From Planctomycetota bacterium (GTDB taxonomy: Bacteria; Planctomycetota; GCA-2746535), in NCBI GenBank assembly GCA_002746535.1, contig NVWA01000016.1:1-64000 (forward strand): a stretch of 64,000 nt of DNA, written 5' to 3'. Shown here piece after piece: positions 12,944 through 47,554 of this stretch. A program made the position numbers and the translations under genes. Within the stretch, counting starts at the first letter, position 1, and each line of letters opens with the position of its first letter. The notes under the pieces are model-generated. The model made no database searches. It was not told where the DNA came from and saw nothing but the letters and a program-made list of their open reading frames with translations.

Positions 12944-13079
12944 AAAATATTTTTACCGATATTTCACTTTCTAAAAAAAAAAATTGATTTCCATTTTCAT
13001 TTAAATCTTATTTCATGAAGAACACTTACAATTCTTTTGACAATAGTTTCAACAATCTTAAAATTCTCGAACTTAGCAT

Positions 13080-13154
13080 GGCGGGTGTAGCTCAGTTGGT
13101 TAGAGCGTCTGATTGTGGTTCAGAAGGTCGTGGGTTCGATCCCCACCACTCGCC
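13080..13154 (+). tRNA. tRNA-His (anticodon GTG) with genomically encoded G-1
   Basis: Folded by hand. Acceptor stem GCGGGTG/CACTCGC with one G-T wobble, D-arm GCTC-AGTTGGTTA-GAGC, anticodon stem TCTGA/TCAGA with loop TTGTGGT, T-arm GTGGG-TTCGATC-CCCAC and discriminator C. An extra 5' G at 13080 marks His. Confidence 0.85.
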
Positions 13155-13204
13155 CTTTAATTTTGATCGTTCTTGTAGAAATATCAAAAACTGAAAATGC
13201 CTCT

Positions 13205-15106: not shown

Positions 15107-15131
15107 ATAGTATTCACATGAGAGAGAAAAA

Positions 15132-16169: not shown

Positions 16170-16171
16170 GA

Positions 16172-27243: not shown

Positions 27244-27351
27244 AATTTACCTAACGGTGATAATTCAATTAAAATTTTTCTCAAATTAAACTTCTTTTCA
27301 GAATTAAAAGAGACATAGTCAAAGATTATGCCTCACTTGTAATGAATCTGA

Positions 27352-33021: not shown

Positions 33022-35232
33022 TTAAGATTGCTTGTAGGTTATGATTGGCTTCGAGGTTCTAATAGACTTAAGATTAATTACTGTTTTAAATTTTCGAGCA
33101 TTAACCTCTATAATAATTTCATTTTTTAAATGAGATCCAGTTATTTTTACGGGAGCTTTACTTTTGATCCCCTTGAAAGGAAATAATACATAAGCACATG
33201 TAAACGGCAACTCACCATTATAGGAAAATTGAACAGCCGGTCTTTTTACTCTACCACCATACTGACATGTAAAGCTCGTGAGAAGTTTCATGCCCAACGC
33301 ATAATCTTGATTATTTTCTTCACCAATTGCTGTTACTTGAATATTAGCATTGCTGTCAGTATCATGATTGGCTGCCACATAGTTCTTGAAATTAAAACTA
33401 GTGGATTGCCTCGCAAAAAAAAGATCTTCTCCGGCATATCGGTTTAAGTTTTTAATTTTATCTGAATGTTTCGACCAAACCGTCAAGTTTTTTAGATCAA
33501 CACCCAATTCTGATTCGGGTGCATTGAAATGAAATCTATTGTCAACGATTTCATAGGGCTCTGTTTTGCCTGGCCATTTCTTAGAACGTTTAACCGTATC
33601 AAGAATTATCCAGAAAGGTTCATCCATCTCATTATTTTTTACTTTACCAATTAATGCAGCGGTTCTTATGATTGAATGAGATTCATGTAAGTTATTGATC
33701 GCAGTCACATAATTAATTGATGGGCTGTGAATTACTTGGGTAGTTTTCGTCCAACTCGAGCCTTCTAATCGCGGGCCTAAAGGTTTGTACCTACCAAGCG
33801 TTACCATACTATGGCTTTCTCCAATGGTGTCATGCGCTTGGGAAATAATATTGTATCCAGAAAAACCCGGATCTGTAATCAAAGGTCGTCCATATCCCCA
33901 TACATCTAAAGAACCAACATCATTATGTGCATGATTAATATTTAAAGCATATGTTAAATTTAGTGCTACAGAATCCAATCCTTTACCGGCACCTAAAATC
34001 TGATATCCACTTTTATTAAAAGCATAACACCCTTGTATCTTTTGGTTGAATTTTGGCTTTTTCATTTTGTGCCAGTGCTGAATTCCCTTTTTTCCCATCT
34101 CCCAAAATAATATTTCATGGGCTTCACTTCTATCAAAGAACCCTGTTCTATTTAAAAAATCAGGTCTATTAAAAAACACGGCCGCCAAATGCAGCATTTC
34201 ATTATGGGCGGTATGCCCTTCATGATGAGAATAAACACCGGTATCAGCCAACAAAGGGGCAATGCCATTATTTCTGCAAATCATACTTGAAAATTCAAAC
34301 GATTTCTCAACGTTTTTCCAAAGTTTGGATGGGATTTTATCACCAGTGCCTTTCCAGTAATATAAATTTTTTATGAGAAGGTTATGAACAACTCGTTGGT
34401 AACCAACCCCTTCTTTAAAGTAGCCTTCTTCATTAACATTGTATTTACTCGTGAAATCATCTGCTATTCTTGATCTTGCCCATTTTAACCATTTGGAAGA
34501 TTGCTTAAAATCTTTAAATATTCCAGCAACCAAATGTGTTGTTGAAATTAAATGCAATGGAATATTAAACATTGCATCCTTACCAGCAGCGAAATAATTA
34601 AATCTAGCTAATTGAAAGAAAACTTTAGCTAAAAATAATTTTTCCTTACTATTGAGATGATCTTTGAAAAAAGGGAATGCCATCATTAGTTCTTCTCCAA
34701 TGTGACCCGTATCATGACCAGGCACACGTCCATAGGCAAATGAGTGCCAACTAAAAGCAGGGGCATGTCGACCTTCTTGCAGTTCAGGTAAGGACTCAAT
34801 AGAATTGTGCACGAGCTTTATGAACCCTTCAAGGTATTTCTTTTTCCCGGTAATATGGAAAAGTCGAATCACATTATAGGCCGCACTACATCTTTTCTTT
34901 CTAGTATTAGCAACTCCCTTATAGACAAGATTGAATTTTTCCTGATTAACATCTTTAGGTTTCGTTGGAATGTCTTTTAAAAAAGTACTGTCTGCTATCG
35001 ATACCATTTCTTTGATCTGCTTTGGAAAGTTTTTATTTAAATAATCACTTATCCAGGGTATATCATCTGACAATAAAGGATGTGAAACTGAAGTACTAAA
35101 TAACACTTCGGCTACTTCTTCAGCCCCTTCTTGGTATTTTTTTTGCTTATACAAACTACTTGCATTGTTATAATTTGGATTTGATAAATCTACTTCTTCA
35201 ATAAATTCTTTATCTGAAAAATTAAACTTCAC
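33022..35232 (-). CDS. heparinase II/III-like protein (second paralogue)
   Basis: NINHAHNDVGSLDVWGYGRP motif, plus an N-terminal alpha-toroid-like region. Confidence 0.65.
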   Translation of the reverse strand: MKFNFSDKEFIEEVDLSNPNYNNASSLYKQKKYQEGAEEVAEVLFSTSVSHPLLSDDIPWISDYLNKNFPKQIKEMVSIADSTFLKDIPTKPKDVNQEKFNLVYKGVANTRKKRCSAAYNVIRLFHITGKKKYLEGFIKLVHNSIESLPELQEGRHAPAFSWHSFAYGRVPGHDTGHIGEELMMAFPFFKDHLNSKEKLFLAKVFFQLARFNYFAAGKDAMFNIPLHLISTTHLVAGIFKDFKQSSKWLKWARSRIADDFTSKYNVNEEGYFKEGVGYQRVVHNLLIKNLYYWKGTGDKIPSKLWKNVEKSFEFSSMICRNNGIAPLLADTGVYSHHEGHTAHNEMLHLAAVFFNRPDFLNRTGFFDRSEAHEILFWEMGKKGIQHWHKMKKPKFNQKIQGCYAFNKSGYQILGAGKGLDSVALNLTYALNINHAHNDVGSLDVWGYGRPLITDPGFSGYNIISQAHDTIGESHSMVTLGRYKPLGPRLEGSSWTKTTQVIHSPSINYVTAINNLHESHSIIRTAALIGKVKNNEMDEPFWIILDTVKRSKKWPGKTEPYEIVDNRFHFNAPESELGVDLKNLTVWSKHSDKIKNLNRYAGEDLFFARQSTSFNFKNYVAANHDTDSNANIQVTAIGEENNQDYALGMKLLTSFTCQYGGRVKRPAVQFSYNGELPFTCAYVLFPFKGIKSKAPVKITGSHLKNEIIIEVNARKFKTVINLKSIRTSKPIITYKQS

Positions 35233-35394: not shown

Positions 35395-36990
35395 CTACTT
35401 TTGTCGGTCTAGAACAATTTTTTCCAAACGTTTAATTTCTTCTTCAAAACGTTTAATGTATTTTTTATTTAATTGCTCTTCATTTACATTTCTTAAATAA
35501 CGTTGGAGCGCAAAAATTATGGTTTCTTCCAAAGTTTCCTGAAGTTTATATTGTCCCTCTTTTTCTTTTTCCTTAAATTTCTTATAGTTTTTAATGATAA
35601 ACTTTTGTAATTTATTTTGCTTACTCTTATATTTTTGATGAACAAATTTATCAATATAATATCTTGTTATGGAAGCATACACAAAAGCAATTCGCTCTTC
35701 AAGCTTTTGATCTTTAAGAGATATCTTCCATGTTTTAAGAACATAGTCATTGAACTTCTCTGGAGTAGACTCCATATTGAAATATGGCTTGCCAGCATTA
35801 AAAAACTCTTCGGCCTGCTCCCTATCACCGCGAACTAAAAGCTCACTAACAACATTTTGTATAAAAAAATGATGTGCCGAATAGAATGTCTGAGATTTCA
35901 TGTTTTTTGGATATTTATTCATGAAAAAAATATAACGCTGATGGACCATTTTAGCTCTATCAAGGTCAGGACCAAAATGAAATGAAATGGTTCCGTCTTT
36001 ATTGGTAAATTGGTATATGTAACCGTAATCATACATTGTCTTTAAATTATACATTTCCATTCTATCTAGAGAAATATGATCATTATAAATCTCCTCTTTT
36101 GAATATATTGTCCAGTACAATCCATGAGAATAACTACTTCTCCAATCTAACTGACCATAGGTCTTTTCCATTTTTAATATTATTGGAATTGAAATTCGGT
36201 AGTCCTGAATCATCTTCCTTCGATAATATAAAACCAATTTTTTAAGCTCGGGAGACTCTCCAAATTTTTCTTCAAATCGAATAAACTTTTCATCTGGATC
36301 AAGTTCAGTTGCAATTATTTTAAAATAAATATTTCTATCATTTTCATTTGAAAAATATATTTGATAAATTTCTTTGGCTGTTTCATTAATTAAAATGTTT
36401 TCTAATTTCTTTTCAACAGCAAGCATTTCGTTAAATTCAGGAGATTCTCCAAAGATATAATGCATTTCTTTTGCAAAATACTCTCTATATAATGGACTAT
36501 TCGTATCAGAGATTCCACCAATTTTATTATAATAGAGCCAAGCTAATTGCTCATAAAGCTTACTATCCCTTGCACAATAAATTAGGCCCTTATCTTTAAT
36601 TAAACCAATACCTGCCTTGATCCATTTCCATTTACTTTTAGTATATGGCATCTCTTTAGCAATATTATAGCTCATGTTCCAGGCAGCATATGTCCACACA
36701 CTACCAATACGGTTTTCCAATTTTCCAATCAAATCAAAAAGTTGAATTAATTCAAAATATTTGCCATCCTCTTCCAAATTAATTGCTCGTAGCCATAAGA
36801 GAAGAATGATGACACCTTTAAATCCACCCATCATTTTATTAGCAATTACAATTTCCGGAGAATCGCCAACATCCAATTTAAATGGAACTAATTTTTCTTT
36901 TGCACGAATCTTATGCATTTCTTTTAATTGAAAATTACTCGCGTAAATCAAGCTAAAGGCAGCAGCTAATAGTATAATCCGCTTAATCAT
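35395..36990 (-). CDS. hypothetical secreted or membrane-associated protein
   Basis: Signal peptide MIKRIILLAAAFSLIYASNF, Lys/Tyr-rich, no motif. Last gene of the overlapping operon. Confidence 0.35.
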   Translation of the reverse strand: MIKRIILLAAAFSLIYASNFQLKEMHKIRAKEKLVPFKLDVGDSPEIVIANKMMGGFKGVIILLLWLRAINLEEDGKYFELIQLFDLIGKLENRIGSVWTYAAWNMSYNIAKEMPYTKSKWKWIKAGIGLIKDKGLIYCARDSKLYEQLAWLYYNKIGGISDTNSPLYREYFAKEMHYIFGESPEFNEMLAVEKKLENILINETAKEIYQIYFSNENDRNIYFKIIATELDPDEKFIRFEEKFGESPELKKLVLYYRRKMIQDYRISIPIILKMEKTYGQLDWRSSYSHGLYWTIYSKEEIYNDHISLDRMEMYNLKTMYDYGYIYQFTNKDGTISFHFGPDLDRAKMVHQRYIFFMNKYPKNMKSQTFYSAHHFFIQNVVSELLVRGDREQAEEFFNAGKPYFNMESTPEKFNDYVLKTWKISLKDQKLEERIAFVYASITRYYIDKFVHQKYKSKQNKLQKFIIKNYKKFKEKEKEGQYKLQETLEETIIFALQRYLRNVNEEQLNKKYIKRFEEEIKRLEKIVLDRQK

Positions 36991-38434
36991 CTACCACCGC
37001 CTTTCCCATTTCTACGTAATGGTATATAACTATTCCTAGTAATAATAGAATGCCACCTCGAAAAATAACATTAGCACCAATATCATCCACCAAAATTAAC
37101 CAAGAAATGAATTCACCATTGACTAAATTATCACCCGACCCATCATGAAAATCAGGGAATATTCTTACAATAAAAAATGAGAACTCTGTTAATAAATTAT
37201 CAAAATAATTTAATTGAACAACTGAATCTTTCGTTTGTTTAAAAGGCTGCAAACTTCTTACTGCTCGTGAAAATAATTCATGGACATAACTAAAAAAGAT
37301 ATAACACGAACCCATGAAAACACTCACAGGAAAAGACAAAAAGCTAGATAAGAAGACACCTAAACAGGCAATTAAACTTAACTTGAAATAGATTAACAGA
37401 CAAGCTTTAGTAAGGTTTAATTCAAATGTCGAAAAGGGAACAAGAACTTTAAAAGTTTTGTTCCTATTTTTTAATACTTCTTTTGGACCAAAATTATTAA
37501 ACATGAAGAACAATGAAGAATCTTTATCTATATCTTTACATGGAAATCTTAATGACTTGTATTGACCACTTGGATGGTCCACCTTAAACACCGCAATCTG
37601 TTTAGATTTGGAATTATAATACTTTCCTTTTATAAAAACTGTCCAAACCCCAAGGATACGATCATTCATATTTTGCGATGAGAATAAATTATATTTAAAG
37701 GTAAAGTATAAAACGCCTGGCGGAGGTTTTGGCACATTCTTAAATACAATAGGCCGGGCACTTAATCTCCCAGAAGGAACATAAAAAAATTCATTTTTAG
37801 AATAATCAGCTGTTCTTTTTCTTCTATACTCTTCTTCAGAGCCTTCTAAATTACCACCCTTTAATAAAATGGACACATCGTTATCGACTAATTCCTGAAC
37901 ATCATAATAGTCTTCTATTGAATAGCGGGCCGACAATACATCTTGCTTGAGCACATGATAGTCTCTTTTAATCTCCAAAGACTTCTCATCATATGGCTCT
38001 TTCTTTAAAATGGCTTCTGCGTTTTTGTATTTAGCTTCTAATGAATTAAATTTTAAAATAATATTTAAATATGAAGTACCGCCAACAAAGCATATTAAGA
38101 CAAAATTAATAATCATAACTGCTATAAATTTACCAATCAAAATTTTCCATCGATGTGCTGGAGTAGCTTCAAGGGTCAAGACTTGTTTCTCTGTTATATC
38201 ACTTCGAATGGCAGTGATCATAGTAAACAATGTAAAAAGACTTAGCAGAAGTAAGCTGCCTCCCATTGTCCACATTAGCAATATTTTAACACTACCTTCA
38301 ACCGAGCCATCAGATTGCAAATGATTAGGCAATACCACCAAGATCATTAATAATAAAAAGAATATTGCAAAACTAATTTTAGAACGAATAGCCTTCGAAA
38401 TAGTATGTTTAGCAATCCAATAAATAGGCCACAT
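36983..38434 (-). CDS. ABC-2-type permease-like membrane protein with a large extracytoplasmic loop
   Basis: Three N-terminal and about three C-terminal TM helices flanking a ~200-aa soluble insert. Overlaps the downstream gene by 8 nt. Confidence 0.45.
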   Translation of the reverse strand: MWPIYWIAKHTISKAIRSKISFAIFFLLLMILVVLPNHLQSDGSVEGSVKILLMWTMGGSLLLLSLFTLFTMITAIRSDITEKQVLTLEATPAHRWKILIGKFIAVMIINFVLICFVGGTSYLNIILKFNSLEAKYKNAEAILKKEPYDEKSLEIKRDYHVLKQDVLSARYSIEDYYDVQELVDNDVSILLKGGNLEGSEEEYRRKRTADYSKNEFFYVPSGRLSARPIVFKNVPKPPPGVLYFTFKYNLFSSQNMNDRILGVWTVFIKGKYYNSKSKQIAVFKVDHPSGQYKSLRFPCKDIDKDSSLFFMFNNFGPKEVLKNRNKTFKVLVPFSTFELNLTKACLLIYFKLSLIACLGVFLSSFLSFPVSVFMGSCYIFFSYVHELFSRAVRSLQPFKQTKDSVVQLNYFDNLLTEFSFFIVRIFPDFHDGSGDNLVNGEFISWLILVDDIGANVIFRGGILLLLGIVIYHYVEMGKAVVDD

Positions 38435-38442
38435 TGGTTAAT

Positions 38443-39591
38443 TTACTCTTGATTTTTATCTTTTTTGCTGGTTAATTGATCAATCAAATCCATGTCAACA
38501 GAACTTTTCTTTTTTTCTGTTGTATCATTTACCGAATTATTCTTGATCATTTCTTTAATAACATGCTCCTCAGGTTTAACTTCTTCCTTAACCTCTTCAG
38601 GAATAGCTTTCGCATTTTCTTTCACCAACTCACTGATAACGGCCGATTCGCCGCCACTGTTGAGAAACTCAGGTGCTGCTGACCCTTGAGATGCGCCGTC
38701 AGTATACTCTTTATTCCATTCATTAATTATTCTTAAAAAATATTCCTCTAAGCCTTCAACAGCATTCGATTCTTTAAAAGATATCCCTTTATTTTTTAAC
38801 CAATCAATAATTTCTGAATGCATTTCCTTGTTCACATCAGACAACTCAAAAGTAATCGTTTCTTTTTTAGTCAACAGCTCATCAAGACTACCCATGCTAG
38901 TAATTTTACCACCATATAATATACATACCCGATCACATATATCTTGAACATCTGAAAGCAAATGACTGGATAATAAAATTGTTTTTCCTCGGCTTTTCAG
39001 ATTCAAGATCAAATCTTTTATTTCTCTTACGCCAATAGGGTCCAGACCAGTTGTAGGCTCATCCAAGATTATTAATTCAGGGTCACCTATCAAACATTGT
39101 GCTAATCCAATACGTCGAGCCATACCTTTAGAATATTCACCCACTCTTCTTTTTTTAGCAACATCCAACCCAACCATTTTAATTAACTCTTCAGTCCTTC
39201 TCTTCCGCTCAGCTTTTGATAGTCCATAAAGACCACCAAAGAAATTTAATGTTTCCTCAGCTGTTAAAAAAGAATATAGATATGATTCTTCTGGTAAAAA
39301 TCCAATTCGTTTTTTATTATCAGCAGATCGAGGGCTTTGTCCGAATATGGCGATCTTGCCTTTAGATGTATTTAAAAGGCCCAACATCATTTTAATAGTG
39401 GTTGATTTGCCGGAACCATTGGGTCCTAACAATCCAAAAATTTCACCTTTTTTAATCGTTAGGCTAATATCCTGAACAGCTTTTACTTTAGGACGACCCC
39501 AAAAATCTTTGAATATTTTCGATACACCGACGATATCAACAATGTTTTCTTCAGAATGTAATGGTTCATCACTCATCTTTATTCTCTGCAT
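38443..39591 (-). CDS. ABC transporter ATP-binding protein with charged C-terminal tail
   Basis: Walker A GLLGPNGSGKSTT, Walker B LIILDEPTTGLDP, Q-loop, H-loop and a divergent signature YSKGMARR. The ~100-aa C-terminal tail is E/K-rich. Confidence 0.85.
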   Translation of the reverse strand: MQRIKMSDEPLHSEENIVDIVGVSKIFKDFWGRPKVKAVQDISLTIKKGEIFGLLGPNGSGKSTTIKMMLGLLNTSKGKIAIFGQSPRSADNKKRIGFLPEESYLYSFLTAEETLNFFGGLYGLSKAERKRRTEELIKMVGLDVAKKRRVGEYSKGMARRIGLAQCLIGDPELIILDEPTTGLDPIGVREIKDLILNLKSRGKTILLSSHLLSDVQDICDRVCILYGGKITSMGSLDELLTKKETITFELSDVNKEMHSEIIDWLKNKGISFKESNAVEGLEEYFLRIINEWNKEYTDGASQGSAAPEFLNSGGESAVISELVKENAKAIPEEVKEEVKPEEHVIKEMIKNNSVNDTTEKKKSSVDMDLIDQLTSKKDKNQE

Positions 39592-41533
39592 TCAGCAATG
39601 CCGCATCTACTTCTACCCGATAAGGGGCAAACTCTTCGCCCATTTTAACAATTCTAAAACTATTAAAAATGACAATGATGGAACTAAAAAAATGAAGCAC
39701 ACCACCTAATATGGGATTAACAAATTCTAATACGGCAAAACTTCCAACTACAAATATAAAAATAAAACCAAATAATAGATTCTGATATACAACGGCTCTT
39801 GTCCGTTTAGCCAAAGTTAATAAAAAAGGTAGTTTATTTAAATCTTCAGTCATCATGGCGACACTGGCGCTACCAATGGCTACATCACTACCGGATGCCA
39901 TCGCAATTCCTAAATCTCCGGCAGCCAAAGCCGCGGCATCATTGACCCCATCACCAACTACAGCGACTTTTTCACCTTTAGCTTTTAATTCATTTACATA
40001 AGCAAGTTTTTCTTCTGGAAGACATTCGGACAATACCTCGTCACATCCTAATTCAGCAGAAACTTTTTCAGCCACTGCTTTTTTGTCGCCGGTAAAAATA
40101 CTTATTTTTCTTAATCCCAATGATTTCAATTTACTTACGGTCTCTATTGCTTCCGCTCTAGTTTTATCTTCTAAACCTATCCATCCAATTTCTTTACCGT
40201 CAAGAGCCACATGAATAACTGACAATCCTTCATCAATGGGTAAAGCGCAATCAACTCCTTTTTCTTTCAACCAAAGCAATCTTCCAACAAGAATTCTCTT
40301 ACCATCTATAAGACCTTCAACTCCCTTACCAGGAATTTCTTTTGAATCAACCACATTTAATAGTTCTAATTTCGCTTCTTTTGCAACAGCAACAATTGAT
40401 CTAGCAACGGGGTGGTTACTAATATTTTCTATACTAGCGGTGTATTTCAACAACTCGGCAGGCTCAAAGTCATCTATAGGTTTCATCCTTGTCACACTTA
40501 AATTACCGGTCGTCAAAGTACCTGTTTTATCAAAGACAAGAACTGTAATAGCAGCAGCTCTTTCAAAATCTAAAACATCTTTAATTAAAATACCCACACG
40601 TGATGCCGCTGATAATGCCGCGATCATGGCGGTTGGTGTTGCAAGGATAATACTTAATGGGCAACTTAAGATTAAAATTGTAATTGCTGGCTCCATCTTT
40701 TGTGTAATGAATAGAATTAATATAGAAATCATTAATACCGCTGGTGTATACCAACCGATGTATTTATCAATAACGGTCATTATTGGTAATCGCGTCTCTT
40801 GAGCTTTTAAAATTAATTCTTTTACTCTACCTAATGTGGTTTGATCACCTACCTTTATAACCTCTAAATAAAGCACACCTGATAAATTAATGGTTCCGGC
40901 AAATACCGAATCACCTTTTTCTTTATCAACAGGTAATGATTCACCGGTAATGTTTGCTTGATTAATCGCTGAATTGCCCTCGGTGATAATACCATCTACA
41001 GGAATTTGTTCCCCGGGTCTAACTAAAATCCGATCACTAATTTTTACTTCTTTAACTTCAACTTCAATTTCTTTTTCATTTTGAATTAAGCGCGCTTTTT
41101 TAGGCGTTAACATCAATAAGTTTTCAATAGCTTTTTTAGCGCCTGATGCCGTTTTATGTTCTAATAAATCAGCAAGGATCATAAAAAATGCCACAATACC
41201 AGCGGTGCGATAATCTTCTAAAGTCAAACACGCGACAACAGCAATGGCAACTAACTCATTCATATGATGTTGGCCAGAAATTAAATCTTCAATAGCCTTC
41301 TTGACAATTGGCACTGTTAAAATTAACGCGCCAACGAATCCACTAACTAATGAGGCATCATTATTGGAAAATATACTTTCAAATAAAAATGAGTTAATTA
41401 AAAACCCTACACCAATGAAACACCATTTTAAAGAAAGGATGACGCCATCACCTTCAGGATTAGACAAAGGCTCAGATGCCCTAGCGACTTCTTTGGGATT
41501 ATTCTCAATCATCATGTTCGCAGTATCACTCAA
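39569..41533 (-). CDS. P1B-like (CPx-type) P-type ATPase without an N-terminal metal-binding domain
   Basis: TGES, DKTGTLT, the HP locus SNHPVARSIV and GDGVNDAAAL. TM6 reads LSCPLSIILATPTA, where canonical enzymes have CPC or SPC. There are four TM helices before the actuator domain. Confidence 0.8.
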   Translation of the reverse strand: MSDTANMMIENNPKEVARASEPLSNPEGDGVILSLKWCFIGVGFLINSFLFESIFSNNDASLVSGFVGALILTVPIVKKAIEDLISGQHHMNELVAIAVVACLTLEDYRTAGIVAFFMILADLLEHKTASGAKKAIENLLMLTPKKARLIQNEKEIEVEVKEVKISDRILVRPGEQIPVDGIITEGNSAINQANITGESLPVDKEKGDSVFAGTINLSGVLYLEVIKVGDQTTLGRVKELILKAQETRLPIMTVIDKYIGWYTPAVLMISILILFITQKMEPAITILILSCPLSIILATPTAMIAALSAASRVGILIKDVLDFERAAAITVLVFDKTGTLTTGNLSVTRMKPIDDFEPAELLKYTASIENISNHPVARSIVAVAKEAKLELLNVVDSKEIPGKGVEGLIDGKRILVGRLLWLKEKGVDCALPIDEGLSVIHVALDGKEIGWIGLEDKTRAEAIETVSKLKSLGLRKISIFTGDKKAVAEKVSAELGCDEVLSECLPEEKLAYVNELKAKGEKVAVVGDGVNDAAALAAGDLGIAMASGSDVAIGSASVAMMTEDLNKLPFLLTLAKRTRAVVYQNLLFGFIFIFVVGSFAVLEFVNPILGGVLHFFSSIIVIFNSFRIVKMGEEFAPYRVEVDAALLNAENKDE

Positions 41534-41556
41534 AACTATTGGTTGCCTTTCACGTT

Positions 41557-42636
41557 TTACTCATCTTTTTTTGTATCTTCAGAAAAAATTGTTGTCTTAT
41601 ATCTAAGTCTTTTTTGATTACTTATGAATTCAACTTTGGAGTTATACAATATATTCGCAATCGTTTTTAAATAAATCTGTTCCATATAGTTTTTTCTAAC
41701 TTTAGGATCACCTTTAAAAGATTTCAAAAGTTCTTTTAATTTTAATGCTTCTGTTTCAACATTTTTTCTCATCTCACGAATATTATTGTCTTCATCAACA
41801 AGAATCTTATTTACAATTGATTCTGTTTGAATAATCATTTTATTGCTAAAGGTTCTACTTTGAGTCAACGTTTGATTAATCTTAATTCTAACCTGGCTCA
41901 CCCCTTTAAAAGAAATTTCTAAAGAAACGGGAGGTTTAGCTTTGATTAACTTTAGCTGTATGATTTCAATTCCGGTTTTCAAATTATCTAGCTGCAACTG
42001 CAATCTTTCCATGACACTTTGATTAAAATTAACTTTCGAGGTTAAAATATCAATTGCATTATATTGACTACATTCTGAGACAATAATTCCTCTTGCAACT
42101 GAATCGATCAGCTTCAAGGCATGTAACCTCCAAGGTTTATCTTTACCATGACCCTTATTCATGTCACCTTCTTCATAAAAGTTTAATATAAACAAATCAA
42201 ACTTTTTGATTTTATAAGTAATATTCCAAGATAAATGAATTAGGTTCATATCTTTGGTTACATTGAATGGGCGTTCGTGCTTGACGATTGGATCTTCATT
42301 AATATTACCATTTGTAGTGTCTTCAACATCGAATAAATCAATTTCAATATTTACCGCTTGATTTACTTTTTCAATGATTTTTTTTGTAAACGGTTCTGGA
42401 AGGCCCCAATATAAACCCTCGTAACGTACATTTTGACCTTTATATGGTTGTATCTTGCCCATATAATAAGTAACCGCAGCCTCACCCTTTTCAACTTTAT
42501 AAACACCAGAAAATAACCACAAACCAACAAGAAGCAACATCATGGCCTTCAACACATTTAGACCAAGCTTGAGGGCACCTTGCACAGCAATATCACCCTG
42601 ACTTGAAATGTTTTGATATTTAATTTCTTCCGGCAT
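41557..42636 (-). CDS. SPFH/Band 7 domain protein (HflK/C-like, third paralogue)
   Basis: N-terminal TM helix followed by a YKVEKGEAAVTYYMGKIQ... SPFH-like core. Confidence 0.5.
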   Translation of the reverse strand: MPEEIKYQNISSQGDIAVQGALKLGLNVLKAMMLLLVGLWLFSGVYKVEKGEAAVTYYMGKIQPYKGQNVRYEGLYWGLPEPFTKKIIEKVNQAVNIEIDLFDVEDTTNGNINEDPIVKHERPFNVTKDMNLIHLSWNITYKIKKFDLFILNFYEEGDMNKGHGKDKPWRLHALKLIDSVARGIIVSECSQYNAIDILTSKVNFNQSVMERLQLQLDNLKTGIEIIQLKLIKAKPPVSLEISFKGVSQVRIKINQTLTQSRTFSNKMIIQTESIVNKILVDEDNNIREMRKNVETEALKLKELLKSFKGDPKVRKNYMEQIYLKTIANILYNSKVEFISNQKRLRYKTTIFSEDTKKDE

Positions 42637-43562
42637 TATTTTTTATCTTTCATGGAGTTTTTACCAAAATTTTCCAAGAATTCTTCTGGGTCTAAAATAA
42701 ATCGCTTATTTCCATTACCTTCGAAGACTTTCTTAATCGCTTCCATTTTTCTAGAAAAAATAGACAACTCAGAATCTTCTGACAATTCTTTATAAAAGTT
42801 AACCAATTCTTTTTGCGCTTTTGATTTTTTATCTTTAGCAGCGCTCCTCGCGTCAGAAATCATTTTGTTTGCTTTTGATTGTGCTTTATCTTGAATTATC
42901 GCGGCTTCTTTCTGCCCTTCAGCAATATAAATAGCGGCTTCACTTTCGCGCTCTTGCTTCATTCTTTCCAAAATAGCTGGTAATACATTTGCCGGAAATC
43001 CAATGTGTGTTATTTTAAACATTTTAATTTTGACACCATATCGATTTAATCCCAAATCCTCTTGGTTTTTATTTGATAAAAAATAGCTTTCGATTTCTTT
43101 TAATACGTTGGTCTTACCTTTTGAGAAAAATTCGCTTAATTGGTACTTACCAACAATACTACCAAGAACGCCTTCAACATTTTTATCAAGAATACTATCC
43201 ATCTCGATAAAATTATCGGAGCTCTCATAAAATCGCTTTGGACTAACTATTTTCCAGCCAACCATAACATTGATATTAAGATTTTTTTCATCACCTGTTA
43301 ATCGATCTTTATTTACCATTTCTTTTATATAAATTCTTCTATCATATTTTTTTACTTTTTGAAAGAATGGTATTTTAAAAAATATTCCTGATTCCATTTG
43401 ATCTACATCAGACCATTCCTTATATCCATTGACCTCATACAATACCTTTCCAAAGGATGTCGATACGGCTGTTTCATTTTCAGAAACCTGAAAAACGGAC
43501 AATTTAATTAGCAACAAACCAAAAATGATTGCACCAACTATTAATAACGATTTCTTTTTCAT
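42636..43562 (-). CDS. HflC-like SPFH domain protein
   Basis: N-terminal TM helix, then VFQVSENETAVSTSFGKV...SGIFFKIPFFQKVKKYDRR, which matches the HflC core (vfvV.Eg..gi..rFG...PGLHFKiPf...v...D.R). Confidence 0.6.
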   Translation of the reverse strand: MKKKSLLIVGAIIFGLLLIKLSVFQVSENETAVSTSFGKVLYEVNGYKEWSDVDQMESGIFFKIPFFQKVKKYDRRIYIKEMVNKDRLTGDEKNLNINVMVGWKIVSPKRFYESSDNFIEMDSILDKNVEGVLGSIVGKYQLSEFFSKGKTNVLKEIESYFLSNKNQEDLGLNRYGVKIKMFKITHIGFPANVLPAILERMKQERESEAAIYIAEGQKEAAIIQDKAQSKANKMISDARSAAKDKKSKAQKELVNFYKELSEDSELSIFSRKMEAIKKVFEGNGNKRFILDPEEFLENFGKNSMKDKK

Positions 43563-43576
43563 AATTTAGCTTTCTA

Positions 43577-45493
43577 TTAATTCCCTATAATCAATTCGTC
43601 TTTTCCATCACCGAGGTCTTCTATGTCTAGTTTTGCATCCTTTGATATAAAATCAATATCTGCTTTCGCATATATATCTTCAAACAAAGAAAACAATTCA
43701 AAGCTCTTAAATAATTCAGGATATTGTTTATGAATCTGCCCAACATTTAGTATATAATTTTTTTGATTTCGAAGGTCAATCATTCGTCTGTGGATTTCTA
43801 ATTCCTGCTTAATATTTAAGCTTAACTTTTCTTTTTCACCAACAGCAATAGTTTGAATTGCAATGGCATGGGCTTTATAAACAGTAGCTTTCGCCTTTTC
43901 ATAAGAATCAAAACTATTCTGCATCATGTCTTTTAATTCACCCGGGAAATGTATGTTCTTAAAATTAACATTTATGATCTCAATCCCGGGTATTTCTTTC
44001 TTAATTTCTTTTTTAAAATAAATCGAAAACTCTCTACTCCATTGACTTATTCTCAAACCAACACTACCTTCAATTGTTTGTTGATTCAAATAAGAAGTAA
44101 TATGTATGTGCAATAAGTTTTCCAAAGCAGCAACAATACCTTCATTTCTAGTAGTGTTAGGATTATCTGCAAAACGATATAAATAATCTCTTAAATTATT
44201 TCTACTAGGAATGTATTGCAAAGAAGCGGAGACAGACAACAGTTCATATAACGATTTGTTTTCATCTTTCACCGCATCTGGGTTAATTCTTCGAACAATA
44301 AATAATTCGGCTTCTTTATAATGACCTGCCGCTGACAAATTAGCTGCTGCCATTTTTTCATGGTCGTGATCTTCGTGTCCTATTTCAATTGTAAAAACCC
44401 TTTTCACAGGAACTCTTTTAACGATGTCAATTGGCCATGGTAGTTTAAAATGAAACCCAGGTTCAATGGTACTCTTATTTATATCTTTTGAGATCGCACC
44501 ATATCTTTCAACAACCCCTACTTCATGGGAATTAATAAAAACAAAACAAGTAGCAAAAGAACCAATGAATACCTGAAAAGCAACAAATGGTAATACGAAC
44601 TTTCTAAATAACTGATAAACCCAAGTCTCTGATACACTGAAACCAAATTGATAATCAACCATCTTATTCAGAGATTGAATAGCAGAACCTGTGGATGTTA
44701 ATAGAAGAAAAAAACGACTATCGTAAGGTGGGAAGTTTACTTCATCACCATGGACGGGTTTGAGTATATATAAGATGGTATTAAAAATAAGTTCAACAAA
44801 TACAAAAGCCGGTAAAACAAATCCTACGATATAAGTAATTTTTAAACTTTCAATAATTCCTGCCGTAAAACATATTAATGCACCGGCTTGAAATCCTACC
44901 AGCAAAGCACATGTTAATAGTTGGGTGGCAGCACCTCGCATAAAAATTTGGCCACCTGCAGAGATACCTCTTAGATACAGTCCTGAAATCATCATAAAAA
45001 ATGATAAACAGGCAAAAAAAGCAGATGCTTTAAACACGTTATCGGGCATGTCATAAGTTGAAAGATATCTGTATTTTTCGAATGTATTCCAGCCATACAG
45101 CAAAAAGAAGATAGATAACACAATACTTAAGATAGGTAAAAAATATTTTTCAAAACGTTTTAAATTTTGCTGAACACTTTCAACGCTAAATTGATCCGTT
45201 AAGAATAATTGACCTTTGCCACCTTTTTGTTTTCGCAATTTCTCAGCATCTTCTAAATCATTTTGCTCATCGGCTGCATTTTTTGTTAAATACAAATGAA
45301 TGAAAGCTAAAACCCAGAAACCTGAACTGAATAAAATATAATAGCTAGAAGTTGATAAAGATTCTACCTCTGTCCATAGTCCAACAAATATATGTAAGCC
45401 AAAGAATATGACTTGTAGCGTTAAACCTACAACAACAGGTCTTAAACTGATGGATGACTTTAAAGCATTCGTTACGTTCTCTTGGAATTTCAA
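43577..45493 (-). CDS. polytopic membrane domain fused to HflK-like SPFH domain
   Basis: About 310 aa with roughly 8 TM helices, followed by VGVVERYGAISKDINKSTIEPGFHFKLPWPIDIVKRVPVKRV (HflK-like SPFH core). Confidence 0.5.
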   Translation of the reverse strand: MKFQENVTNALKSSISLRPVVVGLTLQVIFFGLHIFVGLWTEVESLSTSSYYILFSSGFWVLAFIHLYLTKNAADEQNDLEDAEKLRKQKGGKGQLFLTDQFSVESVQQNLKRFEKYFLPILSIVLSIFFLLYGWNTFEKYRYLSTYDMPDNVFKASAFFACLSFFMMISGLYLRGISAGGQIFMRGAATQLLTCALLVGFQAGALICFTAGIIESLKITYIVGFVLPAFVFVELIFNTILYILKPVHGDEVNFPPYDSRFFLLLTSTGSAIQSLNKMVDYQFGFSVSETWVYQLFRKFVLPFVAFQVFIGSFATCFVFINSHEVGVVERYGAISKDINKSTIEPGFHFKLPWPIDIVKRVPVKRVFTIEIGHEDHDHEKMAAANLSAAGHYKEAELFIVRRINPDAVKDENKSLYELLSVSASLQYIPSRNNLRDYLYRFADNPNTTRNEGIVAALENLLHIHITSYLNQQTIEGSVGLRISQWSREFSIYFKKEIKKEIPGIEIINVNFKNIHFPGELKDMMQNSFDSYEKAKATVYKAHAIAIQTIAVGEKEKLSLNIKQELEIHRRMIDLRNQKNYILNVGQIHKQYPELFKSFELFSLFEDIYAKADIDFISKDAKLDIEDLGDGKDELIIGN

Positions 45494-46452
45494 GCTAATT
45501 CCTTTCGATCAAAAAACACATAACCTATTGTAAAGACACCGACTAAATACATCAGAGCATAAGTCACCCCTGAATACATGTATGACATTGGAATAATTCT
45601 GTCAAAAATGATTGCATCCGACATCTGAAAAACATGGAAGTTTGGAATCACATTGAGAAAAAGGCCGAATATCGTTCCTTCACCACTACCACTCAATACT
45701 AATTGATCAGAAAACAATCCTACCGCAAACAGACAAAAGGTGATAAATAAATTCGCGTTCCTGCTAACAAATGGCGAAAGTGAAAGTGAGATAGATGAAA
45801 TAACCAATAAGCTACAAAATATTAATACGACCCCCTTTAAAAACTCTGGATTAAATCTCATCCAATAGCCTGACAAGTGCCATTCTTTATCCCAAATTCC
45901 AATTATAAAAAAGGAGAGGAGGCTAAAAAATATAGTAGCATATACTGCAGAAGAACAAAAGTTTTTATTAGAAAAATAATTTTGGAAGAACCCATAAAAG
46001 TTAGAACCAAAAAATATAAAAAGCAAAGAAACAAGAACAGGCCAATCTATTTTAAACGCTGACGTTTCAATGGCACCCATTCGTATAACATATACTAATA
46101 GAATGTAATGAAACAAAACCATTATAAATCCGCAAAATACAATTCCTAAATATTTGCCTAATAATAGTTGAAAGCGATTAACTGGCTTAGTTGCTAATAC
46201 TAAAATTGTTTTTTTATGAATCTCGGATGTTAAAGTATGAGATGCGGAAAACGAGACCGTCATGATACCTGTCAGCATAATAGTTGTCATGCCCATCTCT
46301 AATAATAAACGATGGGTTTCATAAAAAACAAACAATGTGTATAAGGGACTTAAAGTAATTAATAATCCCATCACATAAAAAATGACTACATATAATGGTT
46401 GGCGAACCATTTCTTCAAATGAATTTCTAGCTATCAAATAAACTTTGAACAT
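45490..46452 (-). CDS. ABC-2-type transporter permease
   Basis: Six TM helices with ABC-2 topology. Overlaps the next gene by 4 nt. Confidence 0.5.
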   Translation of the reverse strand: MFKVYLIARNSFEEMVRQPLYVVIFYVMGLLITLSPLYTLFVFYETHRLLLEMGMTTIMLTGIMTVSFSASHTLTSEIHKKTILVLATKPVNRFQLLLGKYLGIVFCGFIMVLFHYILLVYVIRMGAIETSAFKIDWPVLVSLLFIFFGSNFYGFFQNYFSNKNFCSSAVYATIFFSLLSFFIIGIWDKEWHLSGYWMRFNPEFLKGVVLIFCSLLVISSISLSLSPFVSRNANLFITFCLFAVGLFSDQLVLSGSGEGTIFGLFLNVIPNFHVFQMSDAIIFDRIIPMSYMYSGVTYALMYLVGVFTIGYVFFDRKELA

Positions 46453-46792
46453 ATCAATAATATACTTATCTCAAATACATATAAAAGCCGTGAATATACT
46501 CTATTCTTTACTTAATTCTAGAAGTTTAACCGGATAATAAAGTCCTCTACAAGAAAAAAGAAACTATATATTAGTCTTATAAATTGTGATATAAAAAGTT
46601 TAAAAAAATAAGAAATCATATGGTGAAAAATGTAATATATTGATAACTCAATTAAGAAATATCCTTCAAAACAATTGAAATAAATCGAATTTTTAAGAAA
46701 GATTTTTAAACTACAACGGCCGTGATTTATTTTAGACAAAGCTATAATTATTTTAACTCTTGAAATGAAATTATTACCTCAAAAGGTTTTCG

Positions 46793-47554
46793 ATGGAAAC
46801 TGACAATTTTAAAAATTTTGCAAAATATTATGACCTAATTTATGGCCTAGATACCTATAAAGATCAACCAGGAGAAATTCAGTTTTTTATACAAGAAGCC
46901 AAAGAATCTAATACGTCCGTACTTGAATTAGGGTGTGGAACAGGAAGAGTTTTAATCCCTACTGCTCAATCTGACATTGACATCATTGGTCTTGATATAT
47001 CAAAAGAAATGTTGGAAATCTTAGAACAAAAAGCAGTAGAACTTGATCTTGGGCCAAAATTAATTCATGCCAATATGGTTGATTTCAAGCTGGACGATAA
47101 ATTTGATTTAATCACCATACCACTTAACAGCATTCATCATATTATCGACAAAAAAGAACAATTAAAAATGTTTCGTAATATTTACCTGCACCTAAACTAT
47201 GGTGGGAAATGTATTTTTACAAATCAGTTTTACAATAGCGATTTTCTTAGTCTAAAAGAATACACCTTTATAGAGACTTACAAAGAAAACACTCTAGGCA
47301 TCGAGCTAGACCTATATTTAAAATTTGATGAAAATAAAAAAACGCTAAAAGAAAGATTCGTCATTTTTGATAAAAATCTCGACGAAGAACAAACCTGTGA
47401 TTTAATGGATTTGTATCCCTTTACAAAAAACGAAATAGAGACTTTAGTTTGTAATGCGGGATTTAAAAAAATAAAGGTATATCAAAATTTCCAATACACG
47501 CCATATGAAGACACAAGTGATTTAGGTGTTTGGGTAATATCTAAAATTAATTAA
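46793..47554 (+). CDS. class I SAM-dependent methyltransferase
   Basis: VLELGCGTGRV motif I, plus motifs II and III. Confidence 0.7.
   Translation: METDNFKNFAKYYDLIYGLDTYKDQPGEIQFFIQEAKESNTSVLELGCGTGRVLIPTAQSDIDIIGLDISKEMLEILEQKAVELDLGPKLIHANMVDFKLDDKFDLITIPLNSIHHIIDKKEQLKMFRNIYLHLNYGGKCIFTNQFYNSDFLSLKEYTFIETYKENTLGIELDLYLKFDENKKTLKERFVIFDKNLDEEQTCDLMDLYPFTKNEIETLVCNAGFKKIKVYQNFQYTPYEDTSDLGVWVISKIN

Follow-up and report, generated by a model that had tools for sequence, protein, structure and literature searches.

A tightly packed eight-gene operon

Eight minus-strand open reading frames (ORFs), g1 to g8, lie within positions 35395–46452 of contig NVWA01000016.1 (assembly GCA_002746535.1), from a Planctomycetota bacterium of the GCA-2746535 lineage. 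Positions are those of the window, by which we mean the whole 64,000-nucleotide stretch that was analyzed. The first gene of the operon in the window, g1 (45490–46452), encodes a NosY-like ABC-2 permease of 320 amino acids. It is followed by g2 (43577–45493), a 638-amino acid fusion of a membrane domain possibly related to cation diffusion facilitators (CDFs) with an SPFH domain; g3 (42636–43562) and g4 (41557–42636), HflC-like and HflK-like SPFH proteins of 308 and 359 amino acids; g5 (39569–41533), a P1B-type P-type ATPase of 654 amino acids without an HMA domain; g6 (38443–39591), a DrrA/GldA-like ABC ATPase of 382 amino acids; g7 (36983–38434), a 483-amino acid ABC-2 permease paralogous to g1; and g8 (35395–36990), a membrane-anchored TPR-like α-solenoid of 531 amino acids.

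From the ORF coordinates, adjacent genes overlap by 4, 1, 23, or 8 nt or are separated by gaps of 14, 23, or 8 nt. A first-pass annotation, made from the DNA letters, had given the same eight overlapping genes, coordinates, overlaps, and gaps, all of which held exactly. Under the longest-ORF rule, g2 and g5 start with TTG; use of alternative in-frame ATGs would shift two of the spacings by <20 nt. The translational coupling that had been proposed from the tight packing remains unproven, and tight gene spacing is common in this genome. Our conclusion that the eight genes are grouped by more than chance rests on conserved synteny rather than on spacing.

The operon promoter presumably lies in the 340 bp (46453–46792) that separate g1 from a divergently oriented methyltransferase gene, an inference from position only, as promoter and terminator scans performed no better than on shuffled sequence. 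An Rfam search found no RNA element. On the other side is a heparinase II/III-like gene (33022–35232); this call, also made in the first-pass annotation, held in profile searches, but the gene is not conserved beside the cluster in other genomes and is irrelevant to it. As the GC content of the operon equals that of its flanks, it is not a recent island.

Three SPFH proteins, one fused to a polytopic membrane domain

Band_7/SPFH domains scored above the Pfam cut-off in g2, g3, and g4 (46, 85, and 55 bits, respectively), and the assignment was upheld by Pfam, NCBIfam, and PDB sequence searches and by fold comparison. Loss of these calls in profile searches was one of two outcomes named in the first-pass annotation as refuting it; all three survive, as do its ABC-2, P1B-like ATPase, and ABC ATPase calls. 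The closest relatives of g3 and g4 among solved structures are E. coli HflC (7vhp_G, E = 4.9e-20) and HflK (7vhp_E, E = 9e-5). Both proteins fall under the corresponding NCBIfam cut-offs (g3, 108 bits against 134 for TIGR01932 hflC; g4, 53 bits against 159 for TIGR01933 hflK). Since the single transmembrane (TM) helix of g3 is N-in, its SPFH domain is predicted to be periplasmic. The cytoplasmic N terminus of g4 is His-rich in 22 of 79 orthologs, the window copy not among them.

Residues 1–322 of g2 (nt 44528–45493) contain seven TM helices, and residues 323–638 form a periplasmic SPFH domain and a long coiled-coil helix, in keeping with the HflK-like fusion with a polytopic membrane part that had been proposed. 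The first six helices may resemble the CDF membrane domain, a likeness that the first-pass annotation had not seen. Matches to Cation_efflux are co-linear and all sub-threshold, the best (E = 1.7e-4) being seen in 4 of 15 g2 members; against the PDB, CDF similarity reached only E = 0.35, and no curated Pfam or NCBIfam family covers the domain. Compared with CDFs such as ZnT/SLC30 and YiiP (PF01545), g2 scores below the Pfam cut-off and lacks a conserved tetrahedral HxxxD/DxxxD metal site in TM2 and TM5. In place of the cytoplasmic CDF C-terminal domain, g2 has a short, conserved cytoplasmic linker (motifs YRPR, DSR, and YQFGFxVSxTW), a seventh TM helix, and the periplasmic SPFH domain. The membrane domain is N-terminal in the best 150 matches, which are mostly of fusion length (620–830 amino acids).

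The cluster resembles the E. coli HflK/HflC-FtsH system (7vhp, 7wi3, 9cz2) in that g3 and g4 have an N-in single TM helix, periplasmic SPFH domain, and long coiled coil, with the same fold in the C-terminal half of g2, and the concept of an SPFH ring around membrane-protein clients is common to both. It differs in having three paralogs rather than two, one of them fused to a CDF-like domain with TM helices before and after it (seven in all), and in having no linked FtsH gene, with two primary transporters as candidate clients. Neither the window nor the 167 fetched loci contain an ORF that passes a motif test for FtsH (Walker A plus HExGH).

A P1B-type ATPase family with unusual metal-ligand signatures

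With a score of 526 bits against TIGR01525 heavy-metal P-type ATPases (cut-off 346), about eight TM helices in a rough hydropathy scan, and intact catalytic motifs, g5 is most similar among solved structures to LpCopA (3rfu), sCoaT (7qbz), and ZntA (4umv); KdpB is among its weaker structure matches. Across 69 orthologs, DKTGT, TGE, and GDGxND never vary, and 68 have the full TGES. The TM4 motif is CPC in 65 and a TM6 histidine is kept in 66. At least four His occur within the first 45 residues in 47 of the 65 CPC-bearing orthologs. Since most orthologs have CPC, the TM6 His, and a His-rich N terminus, the family is likely to be a transition-metal pump, a reading, like that of metal as its cargo, inferred from sequence alone.

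The CPx-type call of the first-pass annotation held, but it had not noted that the window ATPase is a degenerate member of a metal-ligand-rich family. The four orthologs without CPC (those of the window, L006, L052, and L082) retain their catalytic motifs but have lost metal ligands: each has 0–1 His in the first 45 residues, and two have also lost the TM6 His. The window motif is CPL, without the second cysteine of CPC, and the His-rich tail is gone as well; half of the family's metal ligands are missing, and this pump may have changed its substrate or role.

The closest parallels are with P1B-4 ATPases, notably sCoaT. The g5 core is complete (DKTGT, TGES, GDGxND, and CPx), there is no HMA domain, many orthologs have a His-rich N terminus, and the TM6 motif H-x-x-G-S-x5-N-S is spaced like the P1B-4 motif HEG[GS]T-x5-N. 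However, TM4 carries CPC (CPL in the window) rather than SPC, and conservation does not extend to the Glu and Gly of HEGxT. Neither the YN/MxxSS (Cu+) nor the K/DxG (Zn2+) signature is present. As TM5 and TM6 match none of the classical P1B-1, -2, -3, or -4 signatures, the metal cannot be named, and we regard the family as an unclassified P1B subgroup tied to a conserved operon.

A NosY-like permease pair, an ABC ATPase, and a TPR-like partner

The window sequences of g1 (against PF12698/PF12679) and g7 (against ABC2_membrane families) score just below cut-off, and PF12679 is matched by 26 of 28 g7 orthologs. For the family profiles of both, NosY (7o0y_D) is the sole PDB match (g7, E = 2e-6; g1, E = 0.0022), with similarity confined to the N-terminal 120–165 residues. 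The two families align with each other at 99.5% (hhalign, E = 1.4e-22), and g1 and g7 are thus paralogous NosY-like permeases. As NosY is the only solved PF12679-type permease, the match does not imply copper. The 200-amino acid loop described in the first-pass annotation is present: g7 has an insert of ~200 residues after TM3 (residues ~130–340, nt ~37415–38047) that is predicted to be periplasmic. No His-rich stretch occurs in any g1 or g7 ortholog, and the periplasmic parts of g1, g7, and g8 showed no conserved Cys/His/Met cluster.

The ABC ATPase g6 matches ABC_tran (112 bits) and has intact Walker A, Walker B, and H-loop motifs and a C-terminal extension of ~130 residues; a variant signature, [FY]SKGM, and the Q-loop LPEE characterize the family (67 orthologs). 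DrrA and GldA nucleotide-binding domain (NBD) families score highest, both below cut-off (TIGR01188, 220 bits; TIGR03522 GldA, 206 bits). The permeases, for which a scan against the GldF, GldG, and NosY families had been proposed earlier, are NosY-like; g6 does not meet the criteria for GldA membership, nor g7 those for GldG.

As in NosDFY(L) (7o0y), profiles of the permeases match NosY and the NBD is a separate protein, as is NosF, and the idea of an ABC-2 transporter acting on a periplasmic partner in metal trafficking would be shared. The cluster has no NosD β-helix protein, NosL, or NosZ, and NosY is a homodimer, whereas g1 and g7, one with a 200-residue insert, are inferred to pair as a heterodimer.

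For g8, no Pfam or NCBIfam family was found. It is an all-α TPR-like solenoid with one or two N-terminal hydrophobic helices, and Trp, Tyr, Asn, and Arg, rather than metal ligands, predominate among its conserved residues. Its earlier description as a secreted protein is not supported; the sequence is that of a membrane-anchored protein, with the periplasmic or cytoplasmic side unresolved.

Gene order is conserved across several phyla

Loss of gene order in related genomes was the other outcome that would have refuted the first-pass annotation. Instead, of 55 species-representative genome loci with at least 11.5 kb of sequence beyond the g2 start, 49 have g2–g8 arranged as in the window, as do 21 of 28 metagenome loci that were anchored independently on g8 and had at least 9.3 kb upstream. 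Order is kept across Planctomycetota, Verrucomicrobiota, Lentisphaeria/Victivallales, and Brocadiia at only 20–28% identity between orthologs and the window proteins, and a truncated Omnitrophica contig carries the g1-g2-g3 start of the cluster. In most loci g1 adjoins g2; Pirellulales and Phycisphaerae have it in divergent orientation. The g5 ATPase has shifted to the other side of g1, still adjacent, in L012, L051, L053, L068, and L074. Every lineage has other genes on either side, so the cluster itself is what selection maintains. A few loci without the SPFH and ATPase genes keep g6-g7-g8 as a stand-alone three-gene module.

Discussion

Our analyses establish which genes are present, the families and folds to which they belong, their synteny, and the metal-ligand signatures of g5 and its orthologs. 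Our leading reading, which we hold at slightly less than even odds, is that the cluster is an inner-membrane module that most likely handles a transition-metal cation; a single complex, caging, and metal cargo are inferred, with no direct evidence of physical association. That it is specific to the PVC group (Planctomycetota, Verrucomicrobiota, and allied phyla) and inherited vertically there is part of this reading, at the same odds.

In this model, g3, g4, and g2 would assemble into a ring or cage of HflK/C type at the inner membrane, on its periplasmic side, with g2 adding its CDF-like six-helix membrane domain to the rim. The ring would corral two co-encoded ATP-driven transporters: g5, pumping metal from the cytoplasm, and a NosFY-like ABC-2 unit consisting of a g6 ATPase dimer and a g1/g7 permease heterodimer. 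The periplasmic g7 insert and g8 may receive or pass on cargo. SPFH cages holding clients have precedent in structures matched in our SPFH search, HflK/C-FtsH (7wi3, 9cz2) and stomatin bound to aquaporin-1 (9zd2).

Observations on the cargo point both ways. The His-rich N termini of g4, the sub-threshold Cation_efflux matches of g2, and the proximity of g1 and g7 to NosY, which serves as permease in the copper-delivering NosDFY machine, favor metal. The absence of the CDF site from g2, the lack of a Cys/His/Met cluster, and the lost ligands of the window ATPase count against it.

Two known systems offer partial parallels. The czc determinants combine the P1B-4 ATPase CzcP, the CDF CzcD, and the trans-envelope exporter CzcCBA. 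Like the cluster, they bring together at one locus a P1B ATPase, a module of CDF type, and an exporter unrelated to either. In the cluster, that exporter is of ABC-2/TPR type and not of the RND class, SPFH proteins form an integral part, and the distribution spans whole lineages in a housekeeping-like manner, unlike that of mobile resistance islands. In KdpFABC, a P1A ATPase works with a channel-like subunit in K+ uptake, which provides a precedent for a P-type ATPase acting as a subunit of a hetero-complex with a membrane protein from a different transporter superfamily. Kdp has no SPFH or ABC components.

It is also possible, though less likely, that the cluster is an envelope-export machine for non-metal cargo such as lipid, glycan, lipoprotein, or peptide. 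Export would then be carried out by the ABC-2 unit with its TPR partner, in the manner of Wzm/Wzt, TagGH, GldAFG, and ABCA/ABCG-type systems; the SPFH ring would organize a lipid microdomain, and the P-type ATPase and CDF-like domain would either provide or control an ion cofactor or have been repurposed. In its favor are the top g6 scores (DrrA and GldA), the conserved residues of g8, the four ATPases that lost metal ligands and kept catalytic motifs, and the independent g6-g7-g8 module, found beside lpxB/lpxI in L086 and near glycosyltransferase, Wzt, and DUF4340 genes in L153. However, CPC, the TM6 His, and His-rich tails in most ATPase orthologs are hard to explain without metal, g6 and g7 fail GldA and GldG membership, and neighbors of the stand-alone module are heterogeneous.

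We consider it unlikely that the cluster is a quality-control station in which HflK/C-like proteins recruit an FtsH encoded elsewhere and supervise transporter assembly or turnover, as E. coli HflK/C acts on FtsH substrates. HflK/C is not known to have any experimentally established partner besides FtsH (their complex is seen in 7wi3 and 9cz2), and HflC and HflK are the nearest solved relatives of g3 and g4. Yet no FtsH-like ORF accompanies the cluster in the loci searched, g3 and g4 fall under the HflC and HflK equivalog cut-offs, and the FtsH system has no counterpart of a third paralog fused to a CDF-like domain.

Still less plausible is that the operon merely houses a metal-efflux pump, an ABC exporter unrelated to it, and generic membrane scaffolds, with no mechanism in common. 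Every part belongs to a family that works alone elsewhere, and g6-g7-g8 stand alone in a few loci; but this idea would have to accommodate eight genes kept together across several phyla despite low identity, an ATPase still adjacent after rearrangement, a g2 membrane domain found mostly in fusion-length proteins, and selection on the cluster amid differing flanks. An anti-phage or conflict system of membrane proteins is the least plausible reading: SPFH or ABC-ATPase components occur in some defense systems and g6 gives generic ABC-ATPase matches to PADLOC models, but the other seven proteins match none, and the distribution is housekeeping-like and the composition equal to that of the flanks.

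The first-pass annotation knew of no described complex joining a P-type ATPase, an ABC transporter, and an HflK/C cage. We likewise found no published description of the cluster in the literature searched, and the complex itself is unproven. As far as these searches reach, an operon linking three HflK/C-like scaffolds, a metal-type P-type ATPase, and an ABC transporter appears to be undescribed.

Results

Conservation and layout of the operon

The eight minus-strand genes at 35395-46452, which we number as they are transcribed (46452 to 35395), encode an ABC-2 permease (g1), a fusion of a membrane domain to an SPFH domain (g2), HflC-like and HflK-like SPFH proteins (g3 and g4), a P1B-type ATPase (g5), an ABC ATPase (g6), a second ABC-2 permease (g7) and a protein read as TPR-like (g8). 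Their order is overwhelmingly kept in related genomes, and the chance juxtaposition that the first-pass annotation had named as its possible undoing is not borne out. With each GTDB species represented by a single genome, at least 561 species proved to contain a g2 relative, and g2 homologues 620-720 aa long are distributed over Planctomycetota, Verrucomicrobiota, Omnitrophica and Brocadiia. A Verrucomicrobiales MAG, its g2 sharing 25% identity with that of the window, has all eight genes in unchanged order and orientation, and so does a Brocadiia MAG.

We called ORFs by a simple longest-ORF rule in 85 loci, comprising the best 80 from the species scan and 5 obtained earlier, and classified them with iterated HMMs built from the eight proteins of the window. 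The complete g1-g8 array is present in 47 of the 85, most others being truncated by contig ends. Gene g1 is divergent in 30 of the 47 complete arrays (Pirellulales, Phycisphaerae and Sedimentisphaerales) and co-directional, like that of the window, in 17 (Verrucomicrobiota and Brocadiia). Of the species-scan loci, 55 extend 11.5 kb or more beyond the g2 start, and 49 of these contain genes g2-g8. Metagenome contigs, scanned independently with g8 as the anchor, gave the same seven genes in 21 of the 28 loci where the upstream sequence was long enough. The ATPase gene has been relocated across g1, yet is still adjacent, in five loci labeled Planctomycetaceae, Planctomycetales, Phycisphaerae or Phycisphaerales (L012, L051, L053, L068 and L074 in our numbering of fetched loci). 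Of these, L068 belongs to "Planctomycetales bacterium ZRK34" (CP050848.1), a carrier that is in culture. Taxon labels are as deposited for the MAGs, and a few (Bifidobacteriaceae, Acidobacteria) are probably mis-binned. We conclude that the eight families are inherited together as a unit. Since the flanking genes vary by lineage (EF-Ts, ribonucleotide reductase, TatD and others), the adjoining heparinase II/III-like gene that the first-pass annotation remarked on, while present in the window, is incidental to the operon.

ORF calling recovered the eight genes exactly as first annotated, and the overlaps of 4, 1, 23 and 8 nt and gaps of 14, 23 and 8 nt were reproduced from the coordinates. The junctions are typical overlapping stop/start sequences (TTGA, TAATG and ATGATTAA). 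As close spacing is frequent elsewhere in the window too, spacing alone makes an operon likely and no more. Promoter and terminator scans performed no better than on shuffled sequence and are therefore uninformative on transcript structure. An Rfam scan of the window returned one tRNA only, and no riboswitch was found upstream of the operon. The GC content of the cluster is that of its surroundings. The window derives from a low-GC (~33%) Planctomycetota metagenome-assembled genome, and g2 and g8 are identical to the NCBI proteins with locus tags COA79_12175 and COA79_12145, respectively.

Upstream of the operon lie a divergent SAM-dependent methyltransferase gene and a gene whose 417-aa product is only weakly similar to MreB/actin-like ATPases (E 8.8e-5, under the cut-off), together occupying 47567-48820 (minus strand) and 46793-47554 (plus strand); neither is a conserved neighbor in other genomes. 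The surroundings also encode a sulfatase, the heparinase II/III-like protein, a PhyH-family dioxygenase and an IclR regulator (49243-50574, 33022-35232 and 31139-32753, all minus strand), which is typical of the polysaccharide-degradation content of a marine Planctomycete and has no connection with the operon. Another SPFH system, not related to that of the operon, is located 5 kb downstream (21961-30094, minus strand). Its genes, on the same strand and overlapping or closely spaced, encode a 216-aa YqiJ_N (NfeD-like) protein (29444-30094), a 700-aa Band_7 flotillin/YqiK-like protein (27352-29454) and a 1760-aa protein containing DUF3686 ("ATPase involved in DNA repair"), DUF7902 and an AAA domain (21961-27243).

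Three SPFH proteins, one with a CDF-like membrane domain

The three SPFH assignments made at first pass survived a Pfam profile search, with Band_7 (PF01145) scores of 46.3 bits for g2, 84.8 for g3 and 54.8 for g4, all above the gathering cut-off of 23.6. The set has the layout of cage-forming proteins, in which an SPFH alpha/beta domain is followed by a long coiled-coil helix. The scores fall short of membership of the HflK and HflC equivalogs: g3 reaches 108.3 against a cut-off of 134.4 for hflC (TIGR01932), g4 reaches 53.1 against 159.4 for hflK (TIGR01933), and g2 scores ~28 bits on both, also below. The nearest solved structures are E. coli HflC for g3 (E 4.9e-20) and E. coli HflK for g4 (E 9e-5), and g3 begins, as HflC does, with MKKK and then a TM helix. 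All three HflK/C-type proteins are predicted to face the periplasm. A motif test found no FtsH-like ORF in the window or in 167 loci; FtsH may be encoded elsewhere.

An AF2 model of g2 (pLDDT 82.3), built on an 81-sequence alignment, divides into four parts: seven TM helices, a cytoplasmic linker that is conserved and carries near-invariant motifs (YRPR, DSR and YQFGFxVSxTW), the SPFH domain, and a coiled-coil helix of 90 residues. In its C-terminal half g2 matches the cage subunits HflK/C, stomatin, erlin, prohibitin and flotillin. The N-terminal domain has the six-TM membrane fold of CDF transporters, and 4 of 15 isolated N-domains gave a sub-threshold match to Cation_efflux (PF01545; best E 1.7e-4), which was the only kind of match to this domain in Pfam (2025). 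The best listed score, for protein P0010, was 18.8 bits (E 0.0014), short of the 26.6 cut-off, and the window's own N-domain had no PF01545 match. In three of the four full-length matching members the mapping is co-linear, TM1-2 falling on the start of the profile and TM4-6 on its end, and a PDB search with the N-domain profile aligned it with TM1-2 of ZnT1 at E 0.35. In that alignment a metal-site Asp of ZnT1 lies opposite Gly in g2, and the CDF site HxxxD/DxxxD has no counterpart, TM2 and TM5 being without any conserved Asp or His in 81-85 orthologues. We describe the domain as CDF-like in fold; because this canonical site is not conserved, we do not consider membership of the CDF family established. 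The alternative that it is an ABC-2 permease was rejected, as hhalign gave a probability of only 3.7% between the g2 and g1 families.

At 50% identity the domain family falls into 1278 clusters, with 744 of them at E≤1e-30. In the best 150 matches the domain is always N-terminal and the proteins are mostly fusion-sized, the shorter ones probably being fragments; it looks like a dedicated part of the operon's system. Three g2 orthologues (loci L006, L009 and L052) carry a His-rich insert, for example HKKHTHSHSHGAH, within the periplasmic SPFH domain at about residues 360-400.

An unclassified P1B-type ATPase

The P1B-like call for g5 (39569-41533) also held. The protein scores 525.7 bits on TIGR01525 (cut-off 346.25), contains DKTGT, TGES and GDGVND, and lacks an HMA domain. 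All 69 orthologues have DKTGT, TGE and GDGxND, and 68 of the 69 retain TGES. The CPx label was likewise upheld: the TM4 motif is CPL in the window and CPC in 65 of 69 orthologues. TM6 reads H-x-x-G-S-L-x-V-V-F-N-S, with the His present in 66 of 69, and, apart from the missing Glu, lines up with HEGST-x5-N in sCoaT, a P1B-4 pump.

None of the P1B subgroups that we considered accommodates this family. For P1B-1 (Cu+), alignment to LpCopA places FIFIF of the window protein against FIYN and HFFSS against MALSS, and the family consensus has neither YN nor MxxSS. For P1B-2 (Zn2+/Cd2+/Pb2+), the family TM5 (NLxFG[VI]) lacks Lys and TM6 opens with His, not Asp. For P1B-4 (Co2+/Zn2+/Fe2+), TM4 is CPC or CPL rather than SPC, and TM6 keeps the spacing of H, G, S and N with the Glu missing, a resemblance and not membership. 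As g5 passes both TIGR01512 (446 against 313.5) and TIGR01511, these HMMs fail to discriminate the subgroup.

N-terminal histidines are frequent. At least 4 His occur in the first 45 residues of 47 of the 65 CPC-type proteins, either in a planctomycete-type N terminus (MAHEHLHFKDDIAxEHTHGKQ) or in a verrucomicrobial type with long HDHDHH runs and CxxC. The cytoplasmic N terminus of g4 is His-rich in 22 of 79 orthologues, and those of g1 and g7 were never found to be His-rich in the orthologue comparison. Since the background rate of His-rich stretches in unfiltered ORFs is high (98 of 623), these counts are meaningful only as a comparison among the eight families. From the CPC motif, the TM6 His and the His-rich N termini, we infer that the g5 proteins pump a transition metal and form an unclassified P1B subgroup. 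The inference rests on sequence, without activity data, and the metal cannot be named.

Four g5 proteins lack CPC: those of the window (CPL), L006 (CPS; 14302-16284), L052 (CPI; 13054-14970) and L082 (CPT; 13825-15783). Each has 0-1 His in its first 45 residues, and in two of the four the TM6 His is also lost, replaced by Gln. The metal ligands of the ATPase have been degraded independently in four lineages, with the His tail gone and the phosphorylation motifs kept. Judged by its sequence, the window protein is a ligand-poor variant with intact catalytic motifs. In L082, g6-g8 are also missing downstream of g5.

A NosY-like ABC-2 transporter and its probable TPR-like partner

The ABC ATPase call for g6 (38443-39591) was confirmed by PF00005 (112 bits); the protein is DrrA/GldA-like and has every catalytic motif, and Walker A, Walker B, the signature and the H-loop are conserved in 67 orthologues. 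The Q-loop (aa 99-105) is LPEE, with Glu for the usual Gln, in 66 of the 67, and the signature (aa 153-160) is [FY]SKGM instead of LSGGQ.

The permeases of the window fall just under the cut-offs of the ABC2_membrane Pfam models, g1 scoring 27.5 (cut-off 31.6) and 23.5 (27.2), and g7 23.2 (27.2). PF12679 is matched by 26 of 28 g7 orthologues at E<0.01. NosY, one of the comparisons proposed at first pass, is the sole PDB match of both family profiles. The g1 and g7 families are full-length paralogues (hhalign 99.5%, E 1.4e-22), with g7 amounting to g1 plus an insert of ~200 residues after TM3, the loop already seen in the first-pass annotation. Together, these family results point to a transporter formed by a g6 dimer and a g1/g7 heterodimer, an arrangement that remains inferred. 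Profile searches with window and orthologue sequences found no family match for the insert, single-sequence PDB searches of g7 and g8 found nothing, and no conserved Cys/His/Met sites were found in the periplasmic parts of g1, g7 or g8.

Neither of two known ABC-2 systems accounts for the set. The set does not qualify as NosDFY(L), NosD and NosL genes being absent from the cluster and g8 being all-alpha by model. For GldA/GldF/GldG, TIGR03522 scores 206 against a cut-off of 402.6, and the GldG comparison also proposed at first pass gave no PF09822 match in g7, g8 or their orthologues.

The all-alpha structure of g8 comes from a model, and its TPR-like reading rests on a shallow alignment of nine sequences, shallow because a repeat homologue search with the g8 alignment gave only the same nine proteins. 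The g8 profile found nothing in the PDB, and neither Pfam (2025) nor NCBIfam (June 2026) has a model for it. A minority of loci contain g6-g7-g8 only, without SPFH genes or the P-type ATPase (L086, 7592-11347; L118, 4812-9019; L153, 7176-11305), and the ABC/TPR part is therefore a separable sub-module. In L086 it adjoins the lipid A genes lpxB/lpxI, and in L153 DUF4340, a GT4 glycosyltransferase and a Wzt-type ABC ATPase are close by; these neighborhoods are too heterogeneous to name a substrate. In a Kiritimatiellae MAG (L087, 10001-11362), a g8-like protein adjoins DUF2851 and sits opposite a GldA/GldF/GldG-type ABC set (ABC_tran, ABC2_membrane and ABC_transp_aux), which hints at a wider tie between the TPR-like family and ABC-2 transporters.

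Discussion

The conserved unit joins one metal P-type ATPase, one SPFH subunit with a CDF-like membrane domain, and a NosY-like ABC-2 transporter, to whose heterodimeric form the family results point, with a partner that is TPR-like by model. None of its parts falls outside known superfamilies, and the concept of an SPFH cage holding clients is not new. HflK/C-FtsH shares the scaffold type; however, the candidate clients of the operon differ, and HflK/C-FtsH has neither a third paralogue nor a CDF-like fusion. NosDFY shares the permease family of g1 and g7, but the operon lacks NosD and NosL. P1B-4 ATPases are similar to g5 in TM6 and different in TM4, and CDF transporters share the fold of the g2 domain, which lacks their metal site. 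In determinants of the czc type, too, a P1B pump and a CDF occur together with a third exporter. Full-text literature searches, together with a survey of prokaryotic SPFH proteins and papers on PVC genome content (Planctomycetota, Verrucomicrobiota and allied phyla), found no description of the cluster or of a CDF-SPFH fusion. The first-pass statement that no described complex of this make-up was known holds within the literature searched, the physical complex itself being an inference.

How might the parts work together? In the composite model that we favor, the SPFH trio would assemble as a ring or cage and corral two ATP-driven transporters, the g5 pump and the ABC-2 transporter; the system would export a transition metal, then hand it on or buffer it in the periplasm. 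This model is inferred without multimer, expression or experimental data, and could as readily prove wrong as right. A bolder reading, which we regard only as possible, is that a dome of three HflK/C-type paralogues seals an inner-membrane patch and a small periplasmic chamber into which the P1B ATPase, the CDF-like cage domain and the NosFY-like ABC-2 transporter discharge, giving a confined "metal-handling nanocompartment" that would load, buffer or pass on a transition metal.

The alternative that survives best, and remains possible, is a non-metal envelope exporter with ion-handling accessories; the separability of the g6-g7-g8 module and the loss of metal ligands in the window's lineage speak for it. 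An FtsH-linked quality-control station is unlikely; the motif test found no linked FtsH gene in the window or the 167 loci, though one could lie elsewhere. That independent functions are merely co-located is very unlikely for families inherited as a unit. A defense system is all but excluded, since PADLOC found none, returning generic ABC-ATPase matches for g6 only and leaving the other seven proteins unmatched.

What SPFH cages (HflK/C, stomatin, prohibitin, flotillin and erlin) do for the membrane proteins that they enclose is a long-standing question, and bacterial clients other than FtsH are mostly unknown. The operon amounts to a candidate client list written by evolution, a P-type ATPase and an ABC transporter, retained through the whole of PVC history in ~1,000 protein clusters at 50% identity, and it provides a directly testable and unusually direct route to this question. 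Three protein families without annotation can also be defined from the locus, namely an SPFH-fused CDF-like membrane domain, a TPR-like protein that partners ABC-2 transporters, and a P1B subgroup with CPC and a P1B-4-like TM6. The locus points to an unexplored area of metal or envelope physiology in Planctomycetota and Verrucomicrobiota. If the nanocompartment reading is true, this would be the first SPFH cage with its clients hard-wired in the genome, and a core cell-biological feature of PVC bacteria, in which the periplasm is unusually large.
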